From a virus, in IMG/VR virus record IMGVR_UViG_3300029915_000003: a stretch of 64,000 nucleotides of DNA, one strand, 5' to 3'. Under the pieces are notes generated by a model. The model ran no database searches. It was not told the DNA's origin and saw only the letters and a list, made by a program, of their open reading frames with translations. The position numbers were made by a program, and so were the translations under genes. Within the stretch, counting starts at the first letter, position 1. Every line of letters starts with the position of its first letter. This document shows, piece by piece, positions 5,194 through 31,153 of this stretch.

Positions 5194-5427
5194 ATGAAAT
5201 CAGAACAAAGTCTTCATATTCTGTTTCGGAGTCTACGCCCCTGCAAACACGTAATTTTTCGTTACTCCACTTCTTCATCCCATATGTTCAAAAACAACAA
5301 ACCGGTAACAACTGAATACATAGAAGCATACTGTAAGGAATGTCCCCCAAATACATGGGTGGGAATGGATAGCCCCTCTCAAGCCCATAGATGGTCCTAT
5401 GATACCCGCACCCGTAGGCTATGGTAA
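5194..5427 (+). CDS. RxCKH-family miniprotein
   Basis: SLRPCKH...CKEC...YDTRTR. Confidence 0.65.
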   Translation: MKSEQSLHILFRSLRPCKHVIFRYSTSSSHMFKNNKPVTTEYIEAYCKECPPNTWVGMDSPSQAHRWSYDTRTRRLW

Positions 5428-5450
5428 TTTTACCAATAAGGGGTTAAATC

Positions 5451-5648
5451 ATGTCACTATGCAAGATCTGTAAAGAAGAGATTTTTTGGCACCAAGACAG
5501 AGTTACCCGTGACTTAATGGAAACTTCTATTGGTAAGGTTGTTCCATGCAAGGTTCATACTCTCTGTATAGAGCAGATGGGGTTTGAAGGTCTTGTCAAA
5601 GACCTGTACGAACGTCTTAAGAAGATCAGCGGTCCTTACTTTAATTAA
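5451..5648 (+). CDS. Hypothetical protein (CxxC..HxxC)
   Basis: ORF track; GGGG SD. Confidence 0.55.
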   Translation: MSLCKICKEEIFWHQDRVTRDLMETSIGKVVPCKVHTLCIEQMGFEGLVKDLYERLKKISGPYFN

Positions 5649-5677
5649 CTCATATACGAATTACCGAAGAAACCCAA

Positions 5678-5857
5678 ATGATCCACCGACCTCTTTATAC
5701 TAGGCACTGTAAACATTCGTTTGGGTTTGGGTCTTGGGATACCACCCAAATTCCCCATTTAAAGCCATACTGCACTCTGAACTGTGAAGCCTTTGTGTGC
5801 TTGGCTGAAAACCGGTTCAATTTCCAAACCAGAACTTATAGCAATTACGTAATGTAG
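5678..5857 (+). CDS. RxCKH-family miniprotein (59 aa)
   Basis: Manual translation: LYTRHCKH...CTLNC...FNFQTRTY. Confidence 0.6.
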   Translation: MIHRPLYTRHCKHSFGFGSWDTTQIPHLKPYCTLNCEAFVCLAENRFNFQTRTYSNYVM

Positions 5858-5888
5858 AATATGTAAAATAAGGAATAAAAAGTTATAT

Positions 5889-6062
5889 ATGAAATACCCA
5901 ATGTATGTACGTTTATGTAGGTGTGCTTATTCTTGTGTCGAATATGGACTTTTCTATCGTATAGACATGGGGATTATTCCAAGCAATATTTGCGATATTA
6001 AAAGTCACCAACTTAAATTCAATTTCCTAACCAGGACAATCCCAGAGGATAAAATAATCTAA
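5889..6062 (+). CDS. RxCKH-family miniprotein (57 aa)
   Basis: Manual translation: MKYPMYVRLCRC...FNFLTRTI. Confidence 0.6.
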   Translation: MKYPMYVRLCRCAYSCVEYGLFYRIDMGIIPSNICDIKSHQLKFNFLTRTIPEDKII

Positions 6063-6071
6063 AACGGAGCC

Positions 6072-6100
6072 TTGACAAGTTCAGAAGGATCCGCTAAAGT
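6072..6100 (+). promoter_or_regulatory. sigma70-like promoter
   Basis: TTGACA-17-TAAAGT. Confidence 0.75.
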
Positions 6101-6143
6101 AGGTTCATAAAGTTCAGCACCAACCCCCTTCAAGGAAAACGAT

Positions 6144-6596
6144 ATGGCAAAGCCAAAGATTGTCCCCGAACTCAACAAAGACTGCCAACTGCATTACCAC
6201 CAAAGCGAAACAACTGAACTTCTTTCAGATGATAGTAGTGATGTCACTACCCCCCAAGTTATTACCCTAGCGGTTAACACAAAGGACACTTTTGATGGTA
6301 ATACCGTTAGTGTGGGAGTGGCTATTTGCCACGAAGGGGAGCGGTTCGATAAGAAGCTAGGACGGTCAATTGCTATCGGCCGGGCCTTTTGTGACCGTTT
6401 GAATGTTTCTGGTCGCTTCTTTGTTCCCAAGGAAAAAGCCATTGTCACCCGCGTAAGCGATACGGGGATCTCCCGCCAAGAGGTTTCGTGGGATGCGGTG
6501 GAACAAGGGATCCTTGCGGTTGTTTCGAATGGTATCGAAGTTAGCCAGTCTATCATGGATGCTATCCTTTATATGACTTTTGATTCAGAGGACTGA
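6144..6596 (+). CDS. Phage hypothetical protein (GxAxC..F.KKxGRxIAxGRA type)
   Basis: ORF track; AAGGA SD; recurring phage motif. Confidence 0.7.
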   Translation: MAKPKIVPELNKDCQLHYHQSETTELLSDDSSDVTTPQVITLAVNTKDTFDGNTVSVGVAICHEGERFDKKLGRSIAIGRAFCDRLNVSGRFFVPKEKAIVTRVSDTGISRQEVSWDAVEQGILAVVSNGIEVSQSIMDAILYMTFDSED

Positions 6597-6638
6597 CAGT
6601 CGCATTAAATACCCAGTAGTAAAATAGTAATATGTATA

Positions 6639-6722
6639 GGCCCTTTGGTGGAGCAGGCAGACACAGCAGACTCAAAATCTGCCGGTCGCAAGACCGTCCC
6701 GGTTCGAATCCGGGAAGGGCCA
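6639..6722 (+). tRNA. tRNA-Leu(CAA), CCA not encoded
   Basis: GCAGA-CTCAAAA-TCTGC arm, long variable arm, CCCGG-TTCGAAT-CCGGG T arm. Confidence 0.92.
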
Positions 6723-6737
6723 CTTTAAATATAGTAC

Positions 6738-6810
6738 CGCTTTGTAGCTCAGTTGGTAGAGCGCCTGCCTGAAGAGCAGGGCGTCCCCTGTTCGAGTCAG
6801 GGCAAGGCGG
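6738..6810 (+). tRNA. tRNA-Phe(GAA), CCA not encoded
   Basis: TAGCTCAGTTGGTAGAGC D arm; CCTGC-CTGAAGA-GCAGG anticodon arm. Confidence 0.9.
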
Positions 6811-6815
6811 CTTTT

Positions 6816-6902
6816 CCCTTTGTAGTTTATGTGGTTAAAACATTTTGGGCAAAGGTCTGATCGGCCACCAAAATAAGTATGGTTCAATGCCTACCAAGGG
6901 GG
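6816..6902 (+). ncRNA. tRNA-like element with an elongated (33-nt) anticodon arm
   Basis: Acceptor CCCTTTG/CAAGGGG, D arm GTTT..GG..AAAC, bulged T arm with GGTTCAA; ATTTTGG...CCAAAAT encloses 19 nt. Confidence 0.6.
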
Positions 6903-6909
6903 TTTTATT

Positions 6910-7103
6910 GTGGATCTACCTAAATATCTTTACGTAAAGCTAACAAAGTGTTACCATCCTTTTTATTTTGTTGTAGAGGATTTTTCATATGGCCCTCCAA
7001 CTTTTGGAGAGCATATATATATATAGTAAGAGATGGTAATTGCCAAAAATGTAAAAATAAGTGGATGGTATTCCTTCCCGATAAAAGAGAATTGTTGCCA
7101 TAG
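6910..7103 (+). pseudogene. RxCKH-family miniprotein, frameshifted in an (AT)n tract
   Basis: LYVKLTKCYH..; removing 2 nt from the AT run at 7013-7025 joins it to ..GNCQKC..FLPDKRELLP. Confidence 0.5.
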
Positions 7104-7291
7104 ATGAATAAATATAAAGACCCATACGTAAGGCTTTGCAAGGGTTATCATGAATATCTATTGTTGTATGACAGAACCAACCAGAACGTCATTGTAAGAA
7201 AAGAGCCGGTTTTTGTTTGTTGTGTTTGTTGTACAGAGTAGGTCTATATCCAGATAATCGTTTGTTTATTTTTGGAAAAGCAACAAAATAA
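7104..7291 (+). pseudogene. RxCKH-family miniprotein, probable -1 frameshift near 7200
   Basis: PYVRLCKGYH..; the -1 frame gives RAGFCLLC..LYPDNRLF; in-frame TAG at 7239. Confidence 0.5.
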
Positions 7292-7311
7292 AAAAGAACC
7301 TTTTAAAATAT

Positions 7312-7932
7312 ATGAAAATAGATTTTTCCCCTTTTAATGAACCCAATCAAGAAACTGGAGCCAATGGAATCTTTGTTGTGGATTTCAAAGAAGAAGTGGT
7401 TTCCAAATTTTTCAATGATTTTAATGCTTTAGAGCGTAACGAAGCGATAGAGGTGATCCCTATTTTCATCAGTTCTTACGGAGGGGAGTGCGACGCTCTG
7501 ACCGTTATGTATGATCTCATTAAGGCTTGCAAGAAGCCGGTCATGACTGTTATATTAGGGAAGGCAATGTCGTGTGGGGCTATTTTAGCAGCTTCTGGTA
7601 CCAAAGGTTATAGATTTGTAAGTCCAAGTTCCAGGGTTATGTTGCACGAGATTTCTGGCGGTGCTCATGGTAAAAACGCAGATGTGGCTATTACTCAAGA
7701 TGAAATGGCCCGACTAAACAAGGTATTAATGGGGAATTTGAGTAAGGATATGGGCAAAGACCGTAAATGGCTATTAGATGAATTCCATAAACGCAAAAAC
7801 ACTGACTGGTTTGTTGATGCCAAAGAAGCCGTGAATCTAGGAATTTGTGATTATATTGGTGTACCAAAGCTAAATGTAACCAAGAAAGTAGAATCAAAGA
7901 CTGTTGTTATTTATCCACCAAATACCCGTTAA
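7312..7932 (+). CDS. clpP: ClpP-like protease subunit
   Basis: ISSYGG, AMSCG, MLHE and EAVNLGICD motifs. Confidence 0.9.
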   Translation: MKIDFSPFNEPNQETGANGIFVVDFKEEVVSKFFNDFNALERNEAIEVIPIFISSYGGECDALTVMYDLIKACKKPVMTVILGKAMSCGAILAASGTKGYRFVSPSSRVMLHEISGGAHGKNADVAITQDEMARLNKVLMGNLSKDMGKDRKWLLDEFHKRKNTDWFVDAKEAVNLGICDYIGVPKLNVTKKVESKTVVIYPPNTR

Positions 7933-8122
7933 ATACCATTTATGCCAACCAAAAGCCAAAGCGTTCGTCGGTACCTAGCCATCCTGTCCCTGTTAGACAA
8001 CCTGGAATCCTTTGATGAGGAGTTCGAGTTGGAACAGGATCTAAGCAAAACTTGGTACCAACTGACCCCTACGGAACAGCAAGAAATCCGCAAATCATAT
8101 AATTAACCTCAATTTTAAGCGT

Positions 8123-8575
8123 ATGAAACTATCTATACGCTACCTTCTTAACTACAACAACCCTAATAGTTATACTCCCGCTGACCAACTGGAATTTGCA
8201 GCTGGAGATACCGTAACGGTGTATTTTGAGCTGGTAGACCTAAGCCAAAACCAATACGGGGATCCTCCGGGGATAGTCTATATCGCTAGCCCTTCTCCTA
8301 CCCCTGTTTTAACAGTTACGGTACAAAACAACAATGATGCCCTAGTATTGGTAAAAGTACCCACCCAGGTAGCTGGAACCCCGTTTTGGACTATGAACTT
8401 TGCTTCTGGGGAGATTGCCGGTGGCACGTACAGCCTGAAACTTCTTTTAGTCGAAGGTTCCAAATTGACAAACTCAAATATCAATGCTAGTGTGTTGGTA
8501 GATCCTGCCGATGCGTTTCCCCCGGGAGGCTATTGGCCTGCTGGCAGCGGTGGTTTTAACGGTAGTACTAATTAA
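8123..8575 (+). CDS. Probable late/virion beta-rich protein
   Basis: Beta-rich composition; preceded by the late motif CAATTTTAA. Confidence 0.55.
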   Translation: MKLSIRYLLNYNNPNSYTPADQLEFAAGDTVTVYFELVDLSQNQYGDPPGIVYIASPSPTPVLTVTVQNNNDALVLVKVPTQVAGTPFWTMNFASGEIAGGTYSLKLLLVEGSKLTNSNINASVLVDPADAFPPGGYWPAGSGGFNGSTN

Positions 8576-8599
8576 CACCTATACGTAGGCTTCTCTTAA

Positions 8600-8797
8600 A
8601 TGAACCCAATCTTCTCTCACAAGAAACCATACAGGTATCTTAGACCGTGTAAGCATTGGGGGTGGTCTAGTGGTGATACAAGCTCATATTGTCATCCACG
8701 ATATCCAATAGAAAATATGGTTGTATGGCTTATAGGTTGTAATGATAGATATTGTAAGTATATTAATTTCTTACCCGACCTGCGGACTTACCAATAA
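8600..8797 (+). CDS. RxCKH-family miniprotein
   Basis: YLRPCKHWG...CNDRYC...FLPDLRTY. Confidence 0.65.
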   Translation: MNPIFSHKKPYRYLRPCKHWGWSSGDTSSYCHPRYPIENMVVWLIGCNDRYCKYINFLPDLRTYQ

Positions 8798-8900
8798 TTA
8801 AAACACTATGTAGGGAAACAAGATAGAAATACCTACGTCCATGTAAACATTGGGGTAGGGCAAAGGTTCCTGAGGGAGTTTTAAAAAGATTCTTTCAACT
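8798..8900 (+). pseudogene. RxCKH-family remnant
   Basis: *KYLRPCKHWG at 8827-8856 with no start codon. Confidence 0.55.
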
Positions 8901-8904
8901 TCAG

Positions 8905-8933
8905 TTGACAAAGACGAAGGAAGCGACTAAAGT
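8905..8933 (+). promoter_or_regulatory. sigma70-like promoter
   Basis: TTGACA-17-TAAAGT. Confidence 0.75.
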
Positions 8934-9017
8934 ACAAATCATCGGGAGCGGCAATGAGGCTGGCATCCCAAAACAACGGTCTATCAACGTATAGGCCAAG
9001 CAGTAGGAGAAAATACC

Positions 9018-9614
9018 ATGACGAATCTTACGACGCACAGTGTCAATGATGTAGCAGAAGCCCTTGCAATGAGCCTGAACGTGGTGATCGGCTTTGAACG
9101 CTTCAAGGCCGAGTCGGTGGATCCGGTGTCGGCCGTTGTTACCGATACTACTCCGGTGGTTGGCACTCCGGCAACCCAAATCTTCGTGGTCAACGGCCAC
9201 AAGGGCGTTAGCCTGCGCTTTTGTACCAACGGAAAGCCCCGCAAGGGTCGGCCGTTCCCGGTGAAGACGCTGCATGACTTTGTTGACATGCTGGCCGTCC
9301 GTCTACTCGAAGAGACCAAGGACGCTACCCTTCAGATCCTGGTAAAGGCCAAGGAAGAGCGCCACGACGCCCAGGTGAAGCATGCTCGGGACCTACGTCG
9401 GGCCGCGCGAGCCACCGCTAAGCTGGCCGGAAACACCCAGGAGCAGAAGGCAACTCCGGCTCCGACCGTTACCCCTGCCAACCTTGCGGAAATCAACCCC
9501 GCAACGGTTCAGGAGGCTACCAACTCGGTTGTTGAGCAGGTCGCCCAGCTGCTGGTTGATGAGCTGGAGTACACTCCTCCGGCTCCCTCCCAGACCGCTG
9601 CAACCGCTACTTAA
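9018..9614 (+). CDS. Hypothetical early protein (GC-rich codon usage)
   Basis: AGGAG SD; locally higher GC. Confidence 0.75.
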   Translation: MTNLTTHSVNDVAEALAMSLNVVIGFERFKAESVDPVSAVVTDTTPVVGTPATQIFVVNGHKGVSLRFCTNGKPRKGRPFPVKTLHDFVDMLAVRLLEETKDATLQILVKAKEERHDAQVKHARDLRRAARATAKLAGNTQEQKATPAPTVTPANLAEINPATVQEATNSVVEQVAQLLVDELEYTPPAPSQTAATAT

Positions 9615-9664
9615 ATACATAATTTAATAGGTATTTAAGTAGTTTAATTTGTAAAAGATTTACG

Positions 9665-9798
9665 GTCAGAGTTGGGAATCGGGCTGGAACCAGGGGAAAT
9701 TTCGTCTAACAGAAGGACAATGGTCGGTGAGACCGGAAATCTTGGTGCGATTCCAAGAATTTGTAGTACTCTTAGGACTGAACGCCCCAACTCTGACT
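9665..9798 (+). ncRNA. Unassigned structured ncRNA with embedded tRNA-like domain (copy A)
   Basis: Terminal stem GTCAGAGTTGGG/CCCAACTCTGAC; GCTGGAACC...AGGACTGA; D, anticodon and T arms inside. Confidence 0.7.
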
Positions 9799-9836
9799 TT
9801 AAACAAGTTAATATCATTAACATAAAAGGCTACCAA

Positions 9837-10394
9837 ATGGAAGAATCGGAATTCTCCACCAATAGCGATAGCCGTGACAAAAATGTCGTAGATGTTTACA
9901 AGTATTGGACCAAGGATGCCATTAAGGCTAATCTGGATTCCAAGCGTTTAAATTATTCGATTCTTTGCTATAACTTAGGCTATGACATGAACGTAGCTAC
10001 GGTTATTCGTTGTTCTAATGCCTTTCTGGCTTCCCAGGTGTACATCTACCCTCGTAGGAAGTTTGACAAGCGCGGAACCGTTGGCACCCACTGTTACGAA
10101 AACCTTAAGCATGTCAAGCAGTTGGATGACATTACGGATATTCCGGCCGATGCAATTTGGGTTGGTATGGATAATGTACCCACTGCTAGGCCCGTTGAGA
10201 CCTTTACTTTCCCTACCGACAAGCACATTGTTTTGTGCTTTGGGCAAGAGAGTACGGGTCTCCCCCAAGAGATCCTTGCTAAATGTCACCATCTGTTATA
10301 CATTCAACAATATGGATCTGTACGATCCTTAAATGTCGGTGTTGCTGCTGGTATTGCTATTTACGAGTTAGTTAAAGCTATCACTAAAGTCTAA
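9837..10394 (+). CDS. SpoU/TrmH-family RNA 2'-O-methyltransferase
   Basis: NVATVIR, FGQESTGL and IQQYGSVRSLNVGVAAGI SPOUT motifs. Confidence 0.9.
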   Translation: MEESEFSTNSDSRDKNVVDVYKYWTKDAIKANLDSKRLNYSILCYNLGYDMNVATVIRCSNAFLASQVYIYPRRKFDKRGTVGTHCYENLKHVKQLDDITDIPADAIWVGMDNVPTARPVETFTFPTDKHIVLCFGQESTGLPQEILAKCHHLLYIQQYGSVRSLNVGVAAGIAIYELVKAITKV

Positions 10395-10402
10395 AGGAAA
10401 AA

Positions 10403-11524
10403 ATGAACCCCCTAGAACTCCAAATCTACCTACGAAGTGGTAAGACCCCTGCTGACCTGGAGTTAGAGCTAGGAATCAAGAACCGTCAGCACGGTAAATA
10501 TCCGGAATTATACCAATTTAAGTATAACCAAATTGATTCTCCGACCTCACATCCAATTGTACAAGAGTCCAGGGGTATTGTATTGGATAGTAGCTCTAAT
10601 TGGGAGATTGTGGCCTTTCCCTTTAAGCGTTTCGCGAACTACGGCGAAGGATGGGCTGCACCTATCAATTGGAATAAGGCCAAGATCCTTGCCAAGGTAG
10701 ATGGATCTTTGGTGATCCTATATAATTTCAAGGGGGAGTGGCTGGTCGCTACCAGTGGTTCACCTGATGCTTCTGGACCGGTAGGAAGTACTGGTATCAC
10801 CTTTTCGGACCTTATTTGGGATACGTTTAAGATCAATATGGGATTGAACAACCCAACCGAAGTGAAAGAGGCTTTGAAGTCCTACAATAAGGACCATACC
10901 TTTATGTTTGAGCTTTGCACTCCTCTTAATGAGGTAGTGGTTAAGCACACAAAGCCTGTATTGGTGTTTTTGGGTGGTCGGAACAACATTACCCATAATG
11001 AGTATGCAGCCTTTGATGCTTTTCCAGGTATCTTGCCGGTACAACAATTCCACATCCCTACTGATATGGAATCCATCCAAAAGTTTCTGGAGACTCAGGA
11101 CGGGTCCAAGATGGAAGGTTTTGTAGTGGTGGATGAAAATTTCAACCGGGTTAAGGTTAAGCATCCTCTGTATGTTACCTTGCATCATCTTTTGGACCGG
11201 AACTCTCCTAAATCCTTACTGGAGATTGTACGTCTAGGTGAGACATCTGAGTACATGGCTTACTTTCCTGATATGTCCCGAGAGTTTCAGCAAATCAAGG
11301 ATGCTTATGATAATTTATCCTTGGAATTACAAACCTTTTGGGAAAACGCTCCGAAGGGTGATCGTACCAATAAGGAATACAGGAAAACTTTCGCGCAATT
11401 AGCTTTGACCTCCAAGGTTCCTGGGTGTATATTCGGTTTGTTGGATGGGAAAGTGACCAACGCTAAAGAGTATTTACGAGACATGAATATTGACCATTTA
11501 GCAAAACTTTTAATTAAAGAGTGA
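10403..11524 (+). CDS. T4 Rnl1-like RNA ligase
   Basis: ESRG, PFKRF, KVDGSL, EGFVV and KVKHPLY motifs. Confidence 0.9.
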   Translation: MNPLELQIYLRSGKTPADLELELGIKNRQHGKYPELYQFKYNQIDSPTSHPIVQESRGIVLDSSSNWEIVAFPFKRFANYGEGWAAPINWNKAKILAKVDGSLVILYNFKGEWLVATSGSPDASGPVGSTGITFSDLIWDTFKINMGLNNPTEVKEALKSYNKDHTFMFELCTPLNEVVVKHTKPVLVFLGGRNNITHNEYAAFDAFPGILPVQQFHIPTDMESIQKFLETQDGSKMEGFVVVDENFNRVKVKHPLYVTLHHLLDRNSPKSLLEIVRLGETSEYMAYFPDMSREFQQIKDAYDNLSLELQTFWENAPKGDRTNKEYRKTFAQLALTSKVPGCIFGLLDGKVTNAKEYLRDMNIDHLAKLLIKE

Positions 11525-12194: not shown

Positions 12195-12222
12195 TTGACA
12201 AAAAATATCAATCTGCTACATT
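12195..12222 (+). promoter_or_regulatory. sigma70-like promoter
   Basis: TTGACA-16-(TGC)TACATT. Confidence 0.6.
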
Positions 12223-16366: not shown

Positions 16367-16591
16367 ATGGTTACCCCAGAAAAGTTTGCTAGAATGATTA
16401 GACCTTGTAAGAATTGGGGTAAACATGGATTCGACACACTACGTATCATGTGCTATTGGAACACAAGAGATCTAGAAATATGGAATTATGAAAACACCAT
16501 TGTTTGGCGGATTTCGTGTGATGGGAAGAAAGTCCATACTATTGATTTAATAACTAGAAGGGTCATAGCCAATCATGACAAGTGCTCTTGA
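16367..16591 (+). CDS. RxCKH-family miniprotein
   Basis: MIRPCKNWG...WRISC...IDLITRRV. Confidence 0.65.
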   Translation: MVTPEKFARMIRPCKNWGKHGFDTLRIMCYWNTRDLEIWNYENTIVWRISCDGKKVHTIDLITRRVIANHDKCS

Positions 16592-17537
16592 GTATACCGG
16601 TAATTTAAAATGGCTTATGGATAACGTCATTTATTTGACGGTCCATGGTTCCAATGCTTATGGTACCAATACCCCTACCAGTGATTTGGATATCAAAGGT
16701 GTATGCGTTCCTCCAAATAATTACTTAATGGGATTTAACCATAAGTTTGAACAAGCCGACAAGTCATTCAATTACGACACCACTATATATGGGGTCCAAA
16801 AATTCTTTGAGTTAGCGGCCAATTGCAACCCAAATATCATAGAGGTACTTTGGGTTGAGGATTCAGATATCATTACGGCTACTAATTCTGGTGGAAAAGT
16901 CTTAAGGAAAAACAAAGAACGGTTTCTTAGTAAAAAGGCTAGACATACGTTCAGTGGTTATGCAACCGCTCAGCTGAAAAGAATCAAAGGTCACCGGTCA
17001 TGGTTGCTAAATCCCCCCTCCCAGCCGCCTAGCAGGGCTGAATACGGCCTCCCTCCGCTGCGTAAAGCCGATAAGGATCAAGTTAAAGCAGCGGAATTCC
17101 TTTTGGATCAGGGCTATGGTTATGGGTCCAACTTCCAAGAAATGATTGAAAAAGAAAAAGCTTTTGGTATACTAGAAACCCAATGGGAACAATACCAAAA
17201 TTGGAAAGCCAACCGTAATCCTGACAGGGCTGCTCTGGAAGCTAAGTTTGGATTCGATCTTAAGCATGCTGGACATCTATACCGACTTATGGTAATGTGT
17301 GGTGAAATTGCCACCGAAGGTAAAGTCATTGTTAAACGTCCAGACCGTGATATTATAATGGCCATCAAGAATGGTGAGTGGTCCTACGAAAAGCTAGTGG
17401 GATGGGCTGAAGACATGGATAATAAGATGGACGAACTATACGAGAATTCATCCCTGCCAAATTCACCAGACAGAGAATACCTAGACGAATTGTGCTGCCA
17501 GATAGTATCTGATTCTTACGAATATGACTTTATGTAG
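16575..17537 (+). CDS. DNA pol-beta-superfamily nucleotidyltransferase (YcgL/RlaP-like)
   Basis: HGSxAYGTxTPxSDxDxKG, NPNIIE and KHAGHLYRL motifs. Confidence 0.85.
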   Translation: MTSALEYTGNLKWLMDNVIYLTVHGSNAYGTNTPTSDLDIKGVCVPPNNYLMGFNHKFEQADKSFNYDTTIYGVQKFFELAANCNPNIIEVLWVEDSDIITATNSGGKVLRKNKERFLSKKARHTFSGYATAQLKRIKGHRSWLLNPPSQPPSRAEYGLPPLRKADKDQVKAAEFLLDQGYGYGSNFQEMIEKEKAFGILETQWEQYQNWKANRNPDRAALEAKFGFDLKHAGHLYRLMVMCGEIATEGKVIVKRPDRDIIMAIKNGEWSYEKLVGWAEDMDNKMDELYENSSLPNSPDREYLDELCCQIVSDSYEYDFM

Positions 17538-17542: not shown

Positions 17543-17761
17543 ATGGTTACTCCTAGACAACTATCTAAAATGATCCGACCCCATAAGAATTGGGGCTGGA
17601 AGGGTGTACGAAATATGCATATCTCCAAAACGTATCTAGACGATCCGGCATGGCAAGAAGGAGATCCAAACAATTGGATTATAAGTTGTATAGATCGTTC
17701 TGAAGATGATTTTACAATATGGTTAATAATCGATATAGACAATAGAAAAGTCAAAATCTGA
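17543..17761 (+). CDS. RxCKH-family miniprotein
   Basis: MIRPHKNWG...WIISC...IDIDNRKV; paralog of 16367. Confidence 0.65.
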   Translation: MVTPRQLSKMIRPHKNWGWKGVRNMHISKTYLDDPAWQEGDPNNWIISCIDRSEDDFTIWLIIDIDNRKVKI

Positions 17762-17786: not shown

Positions 17787-17815
17787 TTGACAAACACATC
17801 AGAGTAAGCTAGATT
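17787..17815 (+). promoter_or_regulatory. sigma70-like promoter followed by a leaderless 31-aa ORF (17822-17917)
   Basis: TTGACA-17-TAGATT, ATG 6 nt downstream. Confidence 0.65.
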
Positions 17816-19025: not shown

Positions 19026-20081
19026 ATGTCTAGCTTTGCTGTAGAGGTGGTGCTGATTACAGAAAAGACCAAACACGAAAACGCCGATAGCCTTAGTGTA
19101 ACCAATATCAATGGGAATCCAGTAGTATTTAAATCAGACGGATTCAATATTGGCGACAAGGCTGTTTACGTACCGGTTGAAAGTGTGGTACCTGTAGAAC
19201 GACCCGAGTTCGCCTTCCTCAAGCACAAGCTAGGTCAAACCACCGAACGAATCAAGGCCAAGCGCCTACGAGGGGTCTATTCTGAGGGGCTACTTATCCC
19301 CTGCACCCTACCAGATGCCAACATAGGAGATGATGTTAAGGACCTTCTAGGTGTTGTCAAATACGAAGAGGTCCCTCGCTACACTTCGGGTGGAAGGGAA
19401 GTGGAGCTACCAGAAGCGTTAAAAAGCTCTACGTTGCCGGTATACGACATTGAAGCCTACCAGAAACCATCCCATAAGGCTTGTCTGATTTTAGGTGAAG
19501 AAGTATCAGTTACCGAAAAGAGGCATGGCACGAACGCCCGGTTCCTATATAAGGACAATCAGTTGTTTGTAGGTTCTCATCGTACCTGGAAGGAAAAGGT
19601 ACTATCCGAAGAACCCAACGAGTATGGTTTTACTCCTAAGAAATCTGTCTATTGGGCTGCGGCAGAGCAACATGGTTTAGCCGAAAAGCTGGCTAAATAT
19701 CCTGGTTATATATTTTACGGAGAAGTATTCGGCTATAAGGTGCAAGACTTACAGTATGGAGCCAAGGCGGGGGAATTGTTTTTGGAGTTTTTCGATATAT
19801 TCGATACCAATACAAGCACCTGGGTTGATTGGGTAGAAGCTGAAATTATCCTTAAAGATCTAAACCTTCCTATCGTTCCTGAACTTTATCGTGGACCTTT
19901 CGATCCAAACGTGGTAGAACCACTTAGATTCGGTCTAGATCGTAGCGGAAGCCACATTCGAGAAGGTTTCGTTATTAAGCCTATTAAATACCGTTACTAT
20001 CATGTTTTGGGTGGTCGGGTTATACTTAAATACGTCTCTGAAGATTACAAACTTCGTAAAAACCCCCTAGAGGGACATTAA
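19026..20081 (+). CDS. RNA ligase, DRB0094/Rnl2-like, with N-terminal tRNA-binding OB-like domain
   Basis: HENADSL, LRGVYSEGL, TEKRHGTN, YGE, FDI and REGFVIK motifs. Confidence 0.9.
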   Translation: MSSFAVEVVLITEKTKHENADSLSVTNINGNPVVFKSDGFNIGDKAVYVPVESVVPVERPEFAFLKHKLGQTTERIKAKRLRGVYSEGLLIPCTLPDANIGDDVKDLLGVVKYEEVPRYTSGGREVELPEALKSSTLPVYDIEAYQKPSHKACLILGEEVSVTEKRHGTNARFLYKDNQLFVGSHRTWKEKVLSEEPNEYGFTPKKSVYWAAAEQHGLAEKLAKYPGYIFYGEVFGYKVQDLQYGAKAGELFLEFFDIFDTNTSTWVDWVEAEIILKDLNLPIVPELYRGPFDPNVVEPLRFGLDRSGSHIREGFVIKPIKYRYYHVLGGRVILKYVSEDYKLRKNPLEGH

Positions 20082-21905: not shown

Positions 21906-22340
21906 ATGAAAGTTACGATTCTCAGAGGAAGTCCTGGCAGTGGAAAGTCAACTTGGGCAGTAGAGAACTGCCCTGGAGCCACGATTTGCTCTGCCGACTA
22001 CTATTTCACCGTGAATGGTGCTTACAAGTTCTCTCCCGCTCAGCTTGGTTCTGCTCACGACGCATGCTATAAGAAGTTTCAAGAGGCTTTGGCTCAAAAC
22101 CAGGATTGTGTTATCGACAACACCAACACTAGCGTCAAAGAAATGACGCGGTACTATGCCGATGCAATCAAAGCGGGAGCTACGGTGGAAATCGTCCAAA
22201 TTAAGTGCAATCCGGAAATCGCCTTTCAAAGGTGTGTCCACGGGGTTCCCGCTGCCAAGGTTGCCTCTATGGCTCATAATATCGATTCCAATCCAGTTCC
22301 AAAGGACTGGATTTGCACTCAACGTATTATTTGGAATTAA
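21906..22340 (+). CDS. Polynucleotide-kinase-like P-loop protein (AAA_33)
   Basis: RGSPGSGKST, SAD, IDNTN and HGVP motifs. Confidence 0.85.
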   Translation: MKVTILRGSPGSGKSTWAVENCPGATICSADYYFTVNGAYKFSPAQLGSAHDACYKKFQEALAQNQDCVIDNTNTSVKEMTRYYADAIKAGATVEIVQIKCNPEIAFQRCVHGVPAAKVASMAHNIDSNPVPKDWICTQRIIWN

Positions 22341-22344
22341 CCTA

Positions 22345-22997
22345 ATGAAAACCCTTACACTGGCTGAACTCTCTGAAACCCTCCGTTTGCATAAGCTTTG
22401 GTTAGAAGGTAAGGACGAAGGTGTACAGGCTAATTTGTCCGGGGTCAATCTGTCCGGGGCCAATCTGTCCTGGGTCAATCTGTTCGGGGCCAATCTGTAC
22501 GGGGCCGATCTGTCCGGGGCCGATCTGTCCGGGGCCACACTGACCTGGGCCACACTGACCTGGGCCAAATTGACCGGGGCCAATCTGTCCGGGGCCAAAT
22601 TGACCGGGGCCAATCTGTCCTGGGCTAATTTGACCGGGGCCAATCTGTCCGGGGCCAATCTGTCCGGGGCCAATCTGACCGGGGCCGATCTGTCCGGGGC
22701 CACACTGACCGAGGCCAATCTGACCGGGGCCAAAAGCTTGGAAACGGTACGGTGGCAAAGCTTTTGATCCCAGCCGGGGCTAAGCGCATCGGGGGGATGA
22801 TCGGTCGCAAGTGTCGGGCTGAGTTTGTAACGGTACTGGAAGGATCGGGGGTTTCCATGCATGATCTTTCTTTTGAGTACCGTTGCGGGGAAACCGTTTA
22901 TCCAAGTGCTCGAAACCCCTTCAACCCGGATCCTTTGGTGGAATGTTCTGGGGGGATCCATTTCTTTCTTACCCCAGAAGAAGCTGAGAATTATTAA
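22345..22997 (+). pseudogene. Pentapeptide-repeat + DUF5758-like gene, frameshifted at ~22735
   Basis: The repeat frame stops at 22767; the domain continues in the -1 frame; ~70 nt missing relative to the copy at 1-546. Confidence 0.7.
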
Positions 22998-24802: not shown

Positions 24803-24847
24803 AGTGTTTTAGGAAGAGATGACGAGGAGCCACCTCTCATTTTTTCA

Positions 24848-25038
24848 CAAAGATTGACCCACTTTGCTTCCGAAACGGGTTTTTGGTTCTGCTGGTGATT
24901 CCCAATACTCAGGTAGAAAAGAAGTAAGCACTTGACTTCTAGGCTCATTACCATTACAGTCGTGAGGCCCTACCTTACTCTGGCGACTGAGGGACACAAT
25001 AGGATTGGCCCACCTATCCTTTCGCAACGGGCTTTTTT
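24848..25038 (+). ncRNA. Two covarying H-type pseudoknots (24848-24884, 24999-25038) flanking a multi-stem RNA
   Basis: CAAAG-ATTG-ACCC-A-CTTTG..CGAAAC-GGGT-T4 versus ATAGG-ATTG-GCCC-A-CCTAT..CGCAAC-GGGC-T6. Confidence 0.55.
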
Positions 25039-25049
25039 ACTAAAACAAC

Positions 25050-25078
25050 TTGACAACAACCAAACTGTTGGTTATGTT
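25050..25078 (+). promoter_or_regulatory. sigma70-like promoter
   Basis: TTGACA-17-TATGTT. Confidence 0.7.
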
Positions 25079-25100
25079 ACGGCTTCAAAGGAGACACACC

Positions 25101-25628: not shown

Positions 25629-25697
25629 TAACTCAGCTGGTAGAGTGCCGGTTTTCCAAACCGGTTGTCACAGGTTCGAATCCTGTTTACCGCTCCA
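25622..25697 (+). tRNA. tRNA-Gly(TCC)
   Basis: CCGGT-TTTCCAA-ACCGG arm; U73 discriminator; encoded CCA. Confidence 0.93.
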
Positions 25698-25880
25698 AAA
25701 TTAAACCCTGCAAGGCAGGTGCAGGGGGGTTACGAGCAAGTAAGTTACAGCGAAGCAAAAAGTATTGGACATGGGGTTCATTCCATTTTTTGTATGATGG
25801 TCCCCATTGTGGTTTTAGTGTTGGGCCAATACACTTTAATTGGACTAATGATAGTTGCAAGAAGTGCTACGGAGAAGAGC

Positions 25881-26237
25881 ATGACGCCTAAGGAAGTTAA
25901 TAGAATCTGTGTAACGGTTCAGGATAACGATTTCTACCACACTCTTTGGCCTTTCTTGGAGGCATTAAAGGTCTCCGATGTAAAAGATTTAAACGAAGAA
26001 TATATCGTTAAGCTTTGGGATAAATCGTGCCTTGGGTTGTACTATCTGTATCAAAACAGGTTACGTTACGCCTCAGACGATGAAAGCCTAAGCAAATACC
26101 TCCAAAGTAGGTTTCAAGTATATTTGAACGAAGAAATAGCTCAAATGGTCAAAGACCGGTCAGACAAGGACGGATTCTTCGGAAATTGCGAGTACTTCTT
26201 TTTAAATCTTCATACTGGGGAAATCTCCTGTGTATAA
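25881..26237 (+). CDS. Hypothetical protein
   Basis: GGAG SD before MTPKE. Confidence 0.65.
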   Translation: MTPKEVNRICVTVQDNDFYHTLWPFLEALKVSDVKDLNEEYIVKLWDKSCLGLYYLYQNRLRYASDDESLSKYLQSRFQVYLNEEIAQMVKDRSDKDGFFGNCEYFFLNLHTGEISCV

Positions 26238-26246
26238 GAAAGATAT

Positions 26247-26474
26247 ATGTCCGAAACCGGTATAATCATAACAGAACACACCAAGCACCTCCATGGGATA
26301 GCCGGGGGAGCCTTAGAATACGTATCCCAACGCTTGGAATGGCGAGAAGTCGCTCCAAACAAATGGGTCCAGCTCATGATCATCCGGTTTACCGATCACG
26401 ACATGAGAGCTTGGCCAAACGCGAAGTTGATTGAAGGAATCTACTATGAGCTTGAAATACGGCTTGAATTTTAA
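26247..26474 (+). CDS. Hypothetical protein
   Basis: ORF track. Confidence 0.5.
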   Translation: MSETGIIITEHTKHLHGIAGGALEYVSQRLEWREVAPNKWVQLMIIRFTDHDMRAWPNAKLIEGIYYELEIRLEF

Positions 26475-26542
26475 AATAGATTATCTAGAAAAAGTAGTAA
26501 ATTTCACTAAAAAGACATTTTAGGGCTAGTAATTTTCTATGT

Positions 26543-27484
26543 ATGCATCCGTATACATCTATCCATCCCGATACCCTTTACGTAATAGGGGTTGTTAGTA
26601 ATCCTGTGATGTTTAAATCCAGGATCACCCTAGCCAATGAATTCGTAACAAGAATGAAGGGTACCCCCCAAGTAAAATTGGTAACTATAGAAATGGCTTT
26701 TGGAGTAAGGCCGTTCGAATTAACCAATACGGGGGATATCCATATCCAAGTTAGGGGTACGGATGAGGTATGGCACAAAGAGAATCTAATCAATATAGCC
26801 CTAAGTAGATTACCCCCAGAAGCCAAATATATAGCTTGGATTGACATGGATGTGGAGTTTCTTAACCCTAATTGGGCTTTAGACACTTTACATGCATTGG
26901 AACACTACAAGATCGTTCAACCCTGGTCCGACTGTATAGATGCTGGTCCTAAGGGTCAAATAATCCAAACCCATAAAAGCTTTTGCAGTCAATACATCCA
27001 GGGTGCTCCTAGGGGTGGTAGCTATGGGGATGTAGGGCCGTTTTGGCACTGTGGGTTTGCATGGGCGGCTCGCAGGGACACTCTGAATAAACTTGGTGGT
27101 ATGATTGACTGGGCTATATTGGGGGCTGGGGACCACCATATGTCCCTTGCTCTAATAGGTGATGTAAAGAACAGTATTCCAGGAAAAATACACCCCAATT
27201 ATGTTAAAAAAGCCTTACATTATCAATCTCTTTGCTCTAAATGGGTGGAAGAGGATATTGGCTATGTGGATGGTATAATTAAACATCATTGGCATGGTAA
27301 GAAGAAGGATCGAAAATATATAGAACGGTGGGATATATTGGTTAAAAACCAATTTGATCCAGAAGTGGATATTATCAAAGATATTCAAGGTTTATGGCAT
27401 TTAGCAGGTAATAAACCTAAATTACGCAATGAAATTAGAGCTTACTTCCGGCAGCGCAACGAAGACAGCATCGATACAGAGTAA
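26543..27484 (+). CDS. Glycosyltransferase-like (GT-A, DxD) protein, late promoter
   Basis: WHKENLIN, AWIDMD, GFAWA, GAGD and HHWHG motifs. Confidence 0.7.
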   Translation: MHPYTSIHPDTLYVIGVVSNPVMFKSRITLANEFVTRMKGTPQVKLVTIEMAFGVRPFELTNTGDIHIQVRGTDEVWHKENLINIALSRLPPEAKYIAWIDMDVEFLNPNWALDTLHALEHYKIVQPWSDCIDAGPKGQIIQTHKSFCSQYIQGAPRGGSYGDVGPFWHCGFAWAARRDTLNKLGGMIDWAILGAGDHHMSLALIGDVKNSIPGKIHPNYVKKALHYQSLCSKWVEEDIGYVDGIIKHHWHGKKKDRKYIERWDILVKNQFDPEVDIIKDIQGLWHLAGNKPKLRNEIRAYFRQRNEDSIDTE

Positions 27485-27528
27485 ACACACCTTGACTTTC
27501 GCAGAGAAGTAGTGCTTAATATAACTAC

Positions 27529-28845
27529 ATGGCCAAAACCAATAAGAAGCAAACCAAAGTTTTCGTTCTTGATACAAATGTTCTTTTAAATGATTCCGAA
27601 GCTATTTTTAAGTTCGGGAATGCCAAGGTGGTTATACCTTGGGTTTGCTTATTGGAGCTAGATACCTTCAAAAAGGACGCTAGCGAGACCGGCAGGAACG
27701 CTAGGCAAGCTGCCAGGGCTTTGGATGAACTCAGGGAGAAAGGAAGCCTAGAGAAGGGTGTTGACCTAGAAAACGGTGGTTCCATCCAGATATTACACGC
27801 TGGTTCAGATTTGTTGGGAATCGACCTTACCCTACCAGACAATCAAATCCTTACTGTTTGCAAGGGACAATTAAACGTAACTCTGGTTTCTTGTGATATC
27901 AATCTCAGGGTCAGGGCTGACGGTCTAGGTATTCCTTCAGAAGACTATAAGGCTGGTACATCTGTTAGCTCGGATGGTTTGTATACTGGTTACAGGGAGT
28001 TTGTTGTTCCTAAATCAGATATAGATGAATTCTACCAGCACGGGGAACTAGAAATGCCGGATGTGGAATTTCATCCAAACGAATACGTATTACTACAAAA
28101 TGAAGAAAATCTTTCCAATACAGCTTTAGCTAGGTACGACGGAAACCTACAATTTTTGGTTCCGCTGATAGCCCTACCCAAAGATGGTGTTTGGGGCTTA
28201 AAGCCCAAAAACATGCAACAAAACTTTGCTTTGGATTTGCTACTAAATCCAGATATAAAGCTAGTTACATTGAGTGGTATCGCGGGTACGGGAAAGACCA
28301 TACTGTCCATAGCCGCTGGTTTGCAAATGACATTAGAAGAACAGATTTTTCAGAAAGTACTAATCGCTAGACCTATCATGCCTCTTGGTAAGGATATTGG
28401 GTATACTCCCGGAACTATTCAAGAAAAGATGGATCCGTGGATGCGTCCAGTGTATGATAATATCGAGTGTCTGATGAATTCAAACAAAAAAGGAAAAAAG
28501 GCAAATAATTCATATCAGGAATTTATCGATTTAGGGGTTTTACAGGTCGAACCTTTAACTTATATCCGTGGACGCTCAATCCCAAACCAATTTATGATAG
28601 TTGATGAGTGCCAAAATTTATCAATGCATGAAGTGCGTACTATATTAACAAGAATGGGCGACGGCTCCAAGATAATACTTACCGGAGATGTAAATCAGAT
28701 TGATAATCCCCATGTTGATTCAGAATCAAACGGTCTTACCAGAGTAATAGAAGCATTTAAAAATGAAAATATTTCTGGACATTCCGTCTTATCCAAAGGT
28801 GAAAGATCAGAGCTAGCAGAACTGTCAGCAAAACTATTAAAATAA
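27529..28845 (+). CDS. phoH: PIN-PhoH (PhoH2-like) protein
   Basis: LDTNV PIN domain; GIAGTGKT, YIRGRS, DECQN and GDxxQID motifs. Confidence 0.92.
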   Translation: MAKTNKKQTKVFVLDTNVLLNDSEAIFKFGNAKVVIPWVCLLELDTFKKDASETGRNARQAARALDELREKGSLEKGVDLENGGSIQILHAGSDLLGIDLTLPDNQILTVCKGQLNVTLVSCDINLRVRADGLGIPSEDYKAGTSVSSDGLYTGYREFVVPKSDIDEFYQHGELEMPDVEFHPNEYVLLQNEENLSNTALARYDGNLQFLVPLIALPKDGVWGLKPKNMQQNFALDLLLNPDIKLVTLSGIAGTGKTILSIAAGLQMTLEEQIFQKVLIARPIMPLGKDIGYTPGTIQEKMDPWMRPVYDNIECLMNSNKKGKKANNSYQEFIDLGVLQVEPLTYIRGRSIPNQFMIVDECQNLSMHEVRTILTRMGDGSKIILTGDVNQIDNPHVDSESNGLTRVIEAFKNENISGHSVLSKGERSELAELSAKLLK

Positions 28846-28906
28846 ATATGAGATACGGATATATTTCACAAACTTAGCTTTTAAAGTAAAGCCCAATTTT
28901 AACTAA

Positions 28907-29893
28907 ATGCCATTTCAGATACCCCACCCAGAAGAAGGACAAACTGGTTCAGAAAACATACACCTACCAGCCCTTAAAGAGCATTTATCTAGTCACGTTC
29001 CAGACTACAATAAGGCTCAAGACAAGTTCAAGGATCTACACTCTACAGATCAACTAAAACACTTACCCGAAGGTATAGGGGATCCGAACGAACAAGGGAA
29101 ATCTTGGAAATTATGGTTTAAAACCAAAGGTGAACCAAACGATAAACACATCATAAAGGACTTCCATGAAGCCCATTATAACCGTGATATAAGTAGGGGA
29201 TGGGCTGAAATGGCTACTAAATCATTATATCATGCCGGAGGTATAGGGCATTTAATACACAATGTACATGTATCCCACCTTCCTACCGACCAAACGGAAT
29301 CTCACCCATTTGTTACCATCAACATGGCCCACAAACATCTCCCTTTGGAAGATTCTTATGATCTTCTACAGGGTCTAAAGAACGATATCGATAATCCAGA
29401 GTCCGTTAGGAAGGCACACGAAGTCGCTGTAGGTATGAATCAAATTAATACCATGGACTATCTAACCGACAACAGAGATAGACACGGTTTAAATATGATG
29501 ATTTCTCCAGAAGGAAACCCCCTGGCAATAGATCATGGGCACTCATTTAACGGTCAATCTCCCAATGATTTCAGAAGTCATTATTTAGGTCATTCCAACA
29601 AATCAGTAAATACAGGAATAAGCACTCCGGAAGCTTTCCATGAAACCGCAGATTGGTGGCTAAAGAACAAAAACCGTATACAATCCGATTTTAACCAATT
29701 ATTAAATAAAACCATCGTAAATCCAGCTGTTCGTGACGCAATGCACGATAGATTTACCAAAAAGTTCAACATGGTAGATAAGTTCCACTCCAGAGCTTAC
29801 CAAAACATCCCCTACATAAACGCAGAAACAGATGCATATAAAAATAGAGACTATAGAGATGCTGAACATGAAAATGAATTCCACGTAAAGTAG
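28907..29893 (+). CDS. HipA/PI3-PI4-kinase-like protein, late promoter
   Basis: DYLxxNxDRHxxN..AIDHG. Confidence 0.75.
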   Translation: MPFQIPHPEEGQTGSENIHLPALKEHLSSHVPDYNKAQDKFKDLHSTDQLKHLPEGIGDPNEQGKSWKLWFKTKGEPNDKHIIKDFHEAHYNRDISRGWAEMATKSLYHAGGIGHLIHNVHVSHLPTDQTESHPFVTINMAHKHLPLEDSYDLLQGLKNDIDNPESVRKAHEVAVGMNQINTMDYLTDNRDRHGLNMMISPEGNPLAIDHGHSFNGQSPNDFRSHYLGHSNKSVNTGISTPEAFHETADWWLKNKNRIQSDFNQLLNKTIVNPAVRDAMHDRFTKKFNMVDKFHSRAYQNIPYINAETDAYKNRDYRDAEHENEFHVK

Positions 29894-29898
29894 GATCC

Positions 29899-29927
29899 TT
29901 GACAAACCGATCCCACACTGCTAGTAT
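29899..29927 (+). promoter_or_regulatory. sigma70-like promoter
   Basis: TTGACA-17-(TGC)TAGTAT. Confidence 0.75.
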
Positions 29928-30137
29928 CCTCTTAGACCCGAACCTCAAAAACCAATGAAATACCTTAACGAACTAAAAATCCTTAGTCAAGATATCGAAC
30001 AAGTCATTAAATGTGACGATCCCCAAGAATTCAATGAACTTTGGAAAATGGAACTATACGATGATGTTAAGCTAGATATTATCCTTGGTTTAGTCAAACA
30101 AATGCAAGACCTTTTAAACGACTCCTAAAGGAATTAT

Positions 30138-30626
30138 ATGTCTAAGGATCTGAATAATTGTCCTTTCTGCAAAGATCCATTAGATATATCAGAAGGTTTT
30201 ATAGATTTGTGTTGTGAAGGGAAGCTGCCAGCCATCATTAAAAACTGTAAAGCTTGTGACTATAGGGAAGAACGACCTAAATACCCTAAAAGACTTACCG
30301 CAGAGGCGTATCGAACAGAATAGATGAACATCAGGATAGTGGCAGTATCTAAATTTAACGATAAATACCGTTTATACCAATTCTATGACGGCAAAATACC
30401 TTCCTTTGTGGTTACATGGAAAGATTTTTATTTTGGTTACGTAGTAGTTACAAAGATATTTAACCTAGAAGAACACCCATTAAGTCATTTTGACTATATA
30501 CTAGACCAATATAGGTTGGATGGTTGGAATGTGGAAGAAATCTTACCTACCGAACCAGTTAAAAAGCTAATAGACAAGCCTTTACCAGCCAATCCCACGA
30601 GGTGGGACCTCATAGATTATGAATAA
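30138..30626 (+). other. Two small hypothetical ORFs (30138-30323 Zn-ribbon; 30324-30626)
   Basis: ORF track. Confidence 0.55.
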
Positions 30627-30780
30627 ATACTCAACCTACATAAGACTGTGCCAACACAGGTTTTTTAAGAATATCAATATGGGAGATATTTTTTATTGTG
30701 TAAAATGCCCGCAAACCTGTATGTTCAATATAGGGTTGAGACGTGTATTTTCAATAATACAGTTAATGCCAAATAATTAA
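30619..30780 (+). CDS. RxCKH-family miniprotein (53 aa)
   Basis: Manual translation: TYIRLCQH..CVKC..FNIGLRRV. Confidence 0.6.
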   Translation: MNKYSTYIRLCQHRFFKNINMGDIFYCVKCPQTCMFNIGLRRVFSIIQLMPNN

Positions 30781-30788
30781 ACCATTCC

Positions 30789-30962
30789 ATGAATAAAAAT
30801 CTATACTTTAGACCCTGTAGACACTCTATCTACATTATAGATCCTAAAATATATGAATATCGCCAAACAAGAACATTAATGTGTTATAAATGCTTCAACA
30901 TTCCAGTGAACAGCATGTGGATTTTAGATTTATACAATCGTAGCGTTAAAGAGTATTTTTAA
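30789..30962 (+). CDS. RxCKH-family miniprotein (57 aa)
   Basis: Manual translation: LYFRPCRH..CYKC..LDLYNRSV. Confidence 0.6.
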   Translation: MNKNLYFRPCRHSIYIIDPKIYEYRQTRTLMCYKCFNIPVNSMWILDLYNRSVKEYF

Positions 30963-30964
30963 AT

Positions 30965-31153
30965 ATGAAATACCCAATGTATTTAAGACTTTGTAAACAC
31001 TTATATGGTTTTGCAACCAAAGAATGGGGAACTGTTTTATTTGATTATTGTAACAAGGAATCTACTACACATATAACTGAGTATACATATAATTTGAAAA
31101 GTAGAGAATTTAAAATGATGCAAGCTTTAGAACTCGTCACAAATGGACCTTGA
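30965..31153 (+). CDS. RxCKH-family miniprotein
   Basis: MKYPMYLRLCKH..YC..YNLKSREF. Confidence 0.65.
   Translation: MKYPMYLRLCKHLYGFATKEWGTVLFDYCNKESTTHITEYTYNLKSREFKMMQALELVTNGP

Follow-up and report, generated by a model that had tools for sequence, protein, structure and literature searches.

An expanded family of mini-proteins with a putative zinc site in a 163-kb uncultured phage

The DNA considered here is a 64-kb stretch (64,000 nucleotides, nt; hereafter referred to as the window) of the IMG/VR virus record IMGVR_UViG_3300029915_000003, which is part of the circularly assembled contig of an uncultured phage of 163 kb. Between positions 5194 and 31153 it contains 14 sites at which members of a family of mini-proteins are encoded, and these had been described as a dispersed family in a first-pass annotation made from the sequence alone. 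Each of these sites was found to be present and to translate as described, and they comprise 11 intact open reading frames (ORFs) specifying proteins of 53-77 amino acids (aa), two frameshifted copies (6910 and 7104) and one 5' fragment (8827). Common to the copies are their location on the + strand, an N-terminal motif aromatic-x-R-x-C-x-H and a C-terminal motif hydrophobic-x4-R, and in the 11 intact ORFs both motifs occur in one frame. The copies are also, as was stated, AT-rich, with a GC fraction of 0.29-0.44 in comparison to 0.43 for the long genes. In addition, 14 more canonical copies are present in a tandem array on the same contig, 16-19 kb upstream of the window start, with one degenerate copy after the array, and a further single copy, followed by a TTGACA promoter, is located at L014:16752. 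Together with the 14 window sites these bring the family to about 30 copies, in a tally that covers the contig outside coordinates of approximately 64-134 kb and for which the upstream array was reached by contig walking.

The upstream array and the copies in the window

The array (L017:8660-11443) consists of 14 genes arranged head to tail, many of which have overlapping or abutting stops and starts. A promoter (TTGCAA-17-TAGATT) is located upstream of it, and the first gene of the array has a GGAG ribosome-binding site. Based upon an alignment of 26 sequences (A4), the proteins of this family are made up of Met, 3-10 residues, the motif aromatic-x-R-x-C-x-H, a variable stretch, CxxC, 3-6 residues and the motif aromatic-x4-R. 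The first-knuckle Cys and a CxxC at +10 to +31 are present in all 14 array copies, and the C-x-H in 13 of them, the remaining copy (L017:9650) having C-x-S followed by Cys. This arrangement is in keeping with the earlier suggestion of a metal-binding scaffold with a variable loop, as C-x-H and CxxC would form a plausible metal site across a variable spacer of 10-31 residues. In the window, the full set of four putative zinc ligands is found in four of the 11 intact copies. A three-gene block is duplicated within the array; the identity between its copies is 49-54%, and their synonymous sites are saturated. One array member (L017 9045-9386) is 114 aa long, and in it a normal N-terminal half of the family is followed by an aromatic-rich extension of about 55 residues.

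In terms of their composition, 18 of the 26 copies have an isoelectric point (pI) above 8.5 (8.6-9.8 for most) and a net charge of +2 to +9, and the proteins contain two invariant Arg and 10-20% aromatic residues. A subgroup characterized by C-P-H is acidic (pI 4.6-5.8) and has acidic tails. The layout of these proteins was also compared to that of the precursors of ribosomally synthesized and post-translationally modified peptides; here a variable middle lies between two conserved ends, unlike an arrangement of leader and core, and no maturation enzyme for such peptides is found among the precomputed Pfam labels of the neighbouring genes, many of which are unlabelled.

Table 1. Coordinates of the family copies, of the promoters that adjoin them and of other genes referred to in the text. 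HMM, bits with a hidden Markov model trained on the array copies; PSSM, bits with a position-specific scoring matrix trained on them. Coordinates are those of the window unless a contig is named.
Feature	Coordinates	Strand	Remarks
Family member, 77 aa	5194..5427	+	C-K-H and CKEC both kept
Family member, 59 aa	5678..5857	+	C-K-H kept; C-x3-C-x4-C, without CxxC; C-terminal FNFQTR; HMM 21.6; PSSM 18.7
Family member, 57 aa	5889..6062	+	C-R-C knuckle, without CxxC; C-terminal FNFLTR; HMM 19.1; stop 10 nt 5' of promoter 6072
Frameshifted member	6910..7103	+	N-terminal half and CQKC...FLPDKR half in different frames; break at AT run 7013-7025
Frameshifted member	7104..7291	+	PYVRLCKG half in frame 1 (stop 7241); CLLC...LYPDNR half in other frame (stop 7291); PSSM 16.3
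Family member, 65 aa	8600..8797	+	YLRPCKHWG; C-x4-C; C-terminal FLPDLR; PSSM 19.6
5' fragment	8827..8904	+	KYLRPCKHWG alone, without start codon; runs into promoter 8905; PSSM 19.6; DNA repeat D6
Family member, 62 aa	11686..11874	+	PYVRLCNKC, without downstream Cys; C-terminal FYIEKR; PSSM 10.8
Family member, 71 aa	11876..12091	+	PHIRLCKKC; C-terminal FVLKNR; HMM 12.2, marginal
Divergent member, 74 aa	16367..16591	+	MIRPCKNWG; one later Cys; C-terminal IDLITR; upstream flank of RlaP-type nucleotidyltransferase gene
Divergent member, 72 aa	17543..17761	+	MIRPHKNWG, first Cys lost; C-terminal IDIDNR; downstream flank of RlaP-type gene
Family member, 53 aa	30619..30780	+	C-Q-H and CVKC; C-terminal FNIGLR; HMM 18.5
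Family member, 57 aa	30789..30962	+	C-R-H and CYKC; C-terminal LDLYNR; HMM 22.4; PSSM 23.3
Family member, 62 aa	30965..31153	+	C-K-H, one later Cys; C-terminal YNLKSR; HMM 26.1; TGA stop within -35 TTGACA
Promoter TTGACA-17-TAAAGT (sigma-70-type)	6072..6100	+	Directly after the cluster
Promoter TTGACA-17-TAAAGT	8905..8933	+	
Promoter TTGACA-16-TACATT	12195..12222	+	104 nt after cluster
Promoter TTGACA-17-TAGATT	17787..17815	+	26 nt after ORF 17543..17761
Promoter TTGACA-17-TAGAGT	31150..31178	+	-35 hexamer holds stop of 30965
Gad2-like (PF26128)	2357-3049		Early region
Macro	4004-4465		Early region
SpoU methylase	9672-10394		Early region
RNA ligase 1	10403-11524		Early region
RlaP	16575-17537		Early region
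Rnl2-like ligase	19026-20081		Early region
Pentapeptide-repeat/DUF5758 copy	22398-22787 (and 22156-22767)		
Pentapeptide-repeat/DUF5758 copy	1-536		
Pentapeptide-repeat/DUF5758 copy	L014 11337-11843		
Pentapeptide-repeat/DUF5758 copy	L014 13458-14285		
Pentapeptide-repeat/DUF5758 copy	L014 18010-18780		

The frameshifts in 6910 and 7104 and the stub at 8827 are identical in independent assemblies, and hence these defects are not errors of assembly. Together with the loss of CxxC from most of the window copies, the two frameshifted copies and the 5' fragment bear out the earlier description of the family as decaying. The frameshift in 6910 is located at a slippage-prone 13-nt run of alternating A and T (7013-7025), which has the same length in all of the assemblies, so that no length switching is visible there. 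A stretch of 20 nt that spans the start codon is identical in the copies 5889 and 30965 (5885-5908 and 30961-30984; repeat D5), yet for the whole pair the proportion of synonymous differences (pS) is 0.78; this identity could be accounted for by selection acting on their 5' ends or by gene conversion.

Membership, coding capacity and distribution of the family

The 7-residue motif by which the copies were initially recognized has 11 matches on the + strand of the window in comparison to 0.2 in shuffled sequences, but this test is circular, as the motif was defined on these very sequences. Two tests that are independent of it were trained solely on the array copies outside the window, viz. a hidden Markov model (HMM) built from the 14 array genes and an 8-residue position-specific scoring matrix (PSSM). 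With this HMM, five of the window ORFs score 18.5-26 bits, the maximum observed in shuffled sequences being 12.6, and 11 of the 12 top matches are claimed members. The PSSM gave six matches in the window of at least 16 bits, every one of which is likewise a claimed member. The HMM score is low for six of the 11 intact window copies, and the weaker of the copies were still not recruited when the HMM was iterated. The weakest members (11876, 16367 and 17543) are joined by pairwise BLASTP (8600 vs 16367, E=9e-8; 16367 vs 17543, E=2e-9; 11686 vs 11876, E=3e-5), where 8600 links the 16367/17543 subgroup to the remaining family. The results obtained with the HMM, the PSSM and BLASTP show that these sequences form a real paralogous family of small proteins, and the observation made in the first-pass annotation is thus confirmed.

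The members of this family are genuine protein-coding genes, and it is the protein sequence that is conserved. For the invariant Arg all six codons are used (CGC, CGT, CGG, CGA, AGA, and AGG), as are both codons of each of Cys, His, and Tyr. No stop is present in the 709 in-frame codons of the 11 intact window ORFs, whereas stops make up 6.9% of the codons of the other five frames; a single one of these ORFs would be open by chance with a probability of 0.4-2.3%, and the product over all 11 is about 1e-22. For the three closest paralogue pairs, the ratio of nonsynonymous to synonymous substitution rates (dN/dS) is 0.21-0.48, and in the N-terminal 12-20 codons of the pairs 16367/17543 and 5889/30965 the proportion of nonsynonymous differences (pN) is 0.20-0.25 vs a pS of 0.71-0.79. 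Although the copies are AT-rich, adjoin promoters and have weak ribosome-binding sites, as might be expected of a repetitive regulatory element, of either DNA or RNA, that lies in open frames by chance, such an explanation is effectively refuted by the codon use, in which conserved residues are specified by synonymous codons, including a switch between CGN and AGR. It is also at variance with frames that are open far beyond chance and with the results for RNA, as the copies have no shared RNA fold (mean z -0.34 vs -0.15 in controls) and no family-wide hairpin signal at the start codon, and an Rfam scan detected transfer RNAs (tRNAs) only.

The family had also been described as rapidly expanding, and this part of the description is not upheld. 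Since the closest paralogues are at most 54% identical and their synonymous sites are saturated (pS 0.55-1.0), the duplications are old and no recent burst has occurred.

Searches for homologs of these proteins point to a family that is specific for this phage lineage and that has so far been seen solely in one 163-kb phage. Scans of the members against Pfam and PHROGs gave nothing significant. A word-indexed search of 5.8 billion proteins recovered only ORFs of the phage itself, as did a HMMER profile search of 1.84 billion representative proteins, where all nine matches were of this kind. With a sequence profile search of PDB, the best match, to the zinc ribbon of RNA polymerase subunit 12, had a non-significant E of 1.4. 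Nothing beyond noise was obtained by tblastn against 50,697 phage records, and DNA-pattern scans of viral and metagenome contigs revealed no relative. The lone metagenome match to a pattern (contig L019) was rejected, being a 9-residue coincidence in a GC-rich contig.

The phage itself is without a close relative, as indicated by its AAA ATPase, for which the nearest homolog among 5.8 billion proteins is 51% identical. The nearest described phage in terms of the tail sheath is the Myxococcus phage Mx1 (40% identity), and 13 kb of the window gave no match to phage genomes by megablast. The gene content of the window is that of a large tailed phage and includes, besides the tail sheath, PhoH, two RNA ligases, ClpP, a SpoU methylase, Dam, an RlaP-type nucleotidyltransferase, and Macro and Gad2-like proteins. 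All of its long ORFs are on the + strand, and six tRNA genes are present. The start of the window is an arbitrary break, as contigs L011 and L014 extend upstream of position 1. The same phage sequence is found on contigs of 158-163 kb and on numerous short contigs from ENA, JGI, and Logan metagenomes, and the region of the mini-protein family is 100% identical across contigs from more than 10 samples. The sole polymorphism between contigs near the array is a non-coding 14-nt indel just 3' of it (L014 position 2350; L017 11736-11749).

Promoters at the ends of the family clusters

The earlier statement that five clusters of the family end at promoters holds, as five of the seven clusters in the window are located 0-104 nt 5' of a perfect TTGACA (6072, 8905, 12195, 17787, and 31150). 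There is an excess of promoters of the form CTTGACAA-N16-17-TAnAnT, as the pattern TTGACA-N15-19-TAnnnT has 16 matches where 4.2 are expected. Their consensus is defined by the sites at 780, 4473, 6072, 8905, 12195, 17787, 23394, 25050, 29899, and 31150, which indicate that the first 32 kb comprise about ten transcription units. When these ten promoter regions were aligned, the consensus hexamers alone were conserved, and no terminator-like hairpin is predicted at the promoters adjacent to family members.

The proposal that the family is a selfish mini-element inserting at operon ends, or in a related form that its copies serve as recombinogenic cassettes whose homology captures cargo, with the RlaP gene, located between 16367 and 17543, as an example, is in our view very doubtful. 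In its favour, the copy at L014:16752 also ends just 5' of a TTGACA promoter, as do the five window clusters; the two window copies that most resemble each other lie on either side of RlaP; the stub at 8827 stops right after the conserved motif; and 5889 and 30965 have in common the 20 nt at their 5' ends. However, no shared flanks, target duplications, or terminal or recurrent inverted repeats were found among the copies, the DNA similarity and direct repeats between them being confined to the coding N-terminus, and no endonuclease or transposase is encoded. No recent copies are present (maximum amino acid identity 54%), mobility is not visible among the identical contigs from the different samples, and the pS of 0.71 for the pair flanking RlaP indicates that any capture was ancient. 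Due to the lack of shared flanks and repeats, the resemblance of the promoters in their hexamers only, and the pS of this pair, there is no sign of recent mobility or of cargo capture, and the claim of a selfish element is not supported. The operon ends may simply be sites that tolerate extra genes.

Predicted fold, possible functions and related systems

For a canonical member, the AlphaFold2 (AF2) model has a predicted local distance difference test (pLDDT) score of 70. In this model C-x-H is followed by a short helix, a meander of three strands is also predicted, and CxxC lies where the first hairpin turn joins strands 25-27 and 32-37. The ligand-poor window member 16367 (pLDDT 60) is also predicted to contain a C-terminal three-strand meander. 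These models are compatible with a shared zinc-knuckle beta fold and do not constitute proof of it.

The reading that we favour, with a probability of about 0.55, is that this is a coding, lineage-specific, expanded family, with a canonical form that binds a single zinc, whose members are small, early, stoichiometric binders of macromolecules of the host or of competitors. The products would be beta-rich mini-proteins of 50-77 residues, and in the canonical form one zinc ion would be bound by the N-terminal C-x-H and by the CxxC at the turn of a beta-hairpin, the two knuckles being separated by a spacer of 10-31 residues that varies in both length and sequence. Several aromatic residues and two invariant Arg would be located on the scaffold. 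The 14-gene array would be the family's core, probably translationally coupled and lying directly behind an early sigma-70-type promoter, and it was likely enlarged by old duplications, both in tandem and of blocks. The window copies would form a dispersed fraction, in which they are the terminal genes of transcription units of early or accessory type and usually abut the next CTTGACAA promoter, and they appear to be subject to birth and death, most of them being without CxxC, two frameshifted and one reduced to a stub. The proteins would be made early in infection, and the variable loop between the knuckles may set their specificity, so that each copy would bind a different macromolecule of the host or a competitor, for host takeover or counter-defence. 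A role of this kind is favoured because of the early promoters, the neighbouring genes of counter-defence type and the sheer number of diversified copies; the early region of the phage is rich in genes of the counter-defence and RNA-repair types (Table 1).

A number of observations weigh against this reading. Seven of the 11 intact window copies do not have the full ligand set, and for this reason zinc binding cannot be general. A loose Shine-Dalgarno motif precedes just nine of 26 copies, in comparison to 62% of the long genes and 27% of random ATGs, and the support from codon usage is weak, with 17 of 26 copies scoring best in frame. The confidence of the AF2 models is moderate, and no structural neighbour was found, as Foldseek against PDB, VIA-wide against PDB, and the search of BFVD all remained at noise level (best Foldseek E 2.3, best VIA Z-score 3.0). 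No related phage is present in the collections, which bears upon conservation. Lastly, the basic pI, the invariant Arg and the aromatic residues fit the binding of nucleic acids equally well.

The last of these points leads to a serious rival, in which the same family would consist of small zinc-dependent regulators that bind DNA or RNA, or of architectural proteins, and which we consider unlikely on balance. It is serious because most of the copies (18 of 26) are basic, with the two invariant Arg and many aromatic residues on a beta scaffold; the only echo in sequence, and a weak one, is the insignificant match to RNA polymerase subunit 12, and a precedent has been proposed for the zinc-ribbon expansion of phage G (PMC7824862). 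However, it does not readily account for the acidic C-P-H subgroup, thirty specific regulators are many for a genome of 163 kb, and no recurring operator-like sites are linked to the copies. It is also rather improbable that only the tandem array is functional and that the dispersed window copies are unneeded relics, i.e., open frames at untranslated operon tails. The absence of CxxC from seven of the 11 intact window copies, the two frameshifted copies and the stub, the poor ribosome-binding sites and the low HMM scores of six of the 11 are all in accordance with this possibility. It is made less likely by the fact that the frames stay open, since all 11 are uninterrupted over 53-77 codons despite synonymous sites that are saturated vs every paralogue (chance of about 1e-22), and their N-terminal pN/pS is about 0.3. 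A more elaborate proposal, which we likewise regard as improbable, is that of a diversified counter-defence arsenal, where each mini-protein neutralizes a different immune sensor or effector of the host by means of its variable loop, and the promoter-proximal ends of early operons serve as slots in which copies are installed and retired, and in which they are switched, e.g., through slippage in the AT run at 7013-7025.

In relation to known systems, the closest published analogue of the family is the lineage-specific expansion of zinc ribbons in Bacillus phage G, which has about 35 copies, gp32 (YP_009015343.1) being one of them (Iyer et al., 2021, PMC7824862). In both cases, dozens of diverged small paralogues with a Cys-based (here putative) zinc module are present in one large phage, partly in tandem and with no assigned function. 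However, the phage G proteins are 90-118 aa in length, with CPxC...Cx3C and a conserved C-terminal region KYWKENDRYL, whereas the proteins described here are of 50-77 aa, contain aromatic-x-R-x-C-x-H...CxxC...hydrophobic-x4-R, and are in part degenerate and scattered to operon ends. A comparison by hhalign of the alignment A4 with that of the phage G proteins (A10) gave a probability of 0.4% (E=0.15 over 10 columns), and based upon this probability the two families are not homologous. The family is a new and unrelated one of an already recognized sort, viz. expanded phage mini-proteins of zinc type.

Two other systems provide functional and architectural analogies only. Large myoviruses contain host-takeover modules of small early genes, such as the 26-gene module of SPO1 (PMC6873191). 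Similar to the array described here, such a module is a cluster of many small genes located downstream of early promoters of the sigma-70 type in a tailed phage of large size, and the products of these genes are presumed to be stoichiometric host inhibitors. The genes of the SPO1 module are mostly unrelated to each other, whereas in the present phage one family supplies about 30 genes, and the two show no sequence similarity. The promoter/stem-loop (PeSL) cassettes in the hyperplastic regions of T4-type phages (PMC2839356, PMC4122927) also have variable small ORFs at boundaries marked by repeated early promoters, which is a route for the shuffling of modules; in contrast to these, no stem-loop partner is predicted at the promoters of the phage described here, and the promoter regions are alike in their hexamers only.

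The mini-protein family is well supported and, in terms of function, blank. Large phages have repeatedly inflated single families of tiny zinc-type proteins, none of which has an assigned function, and the contrast within this phage between a tidy, fully liganded array and scattered copies that are ligand-poor or broken provides a convenient case for examining the role and turnover of such expansions. If the members are indeed specific inhibitors of host systems, their scaffold would represent a natural library of mini-binders.

Some other small ORFs are located within or close to the clusters. Those at 5451-5648 (CxxC...C-x-x-H-x-x-C) and 30138-30323 (CxxC...CxxC) are rich in Cys and lie within or beside clusters, but neither is scored by the family HMM, and hence they are zinc-finger mini-proteins of a different kind. 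Just 3' of the 30619-31153 cluster, an ORF of 105 aa (31415-31732) contains L-R-Y-C-N-H-C and a later C-x4-C. Its score with the family HMMs is only 6-8 bits, and the resemblance may be either coincidental or that of a larger, distant relative. A short frame at 36888-37004, which overlaps the end of the gene 36217-36948, contains CNKC followed by YIFFFNVLNR and scores 13.3 bits with the array-only HMM vs the shuffle maximum of 12.6, and it may be a C-terminal remnant of the family in the late region. The phage also contains a second expanded family, which consists of at least four pentapeptide-repeat proteins with a C-terminal DUF5758 domain (Table 1). A 15-nt tandem repeat (D1) corresponds to the repeat region of these proteins, and the DNA identity between their copies is 80-87%.

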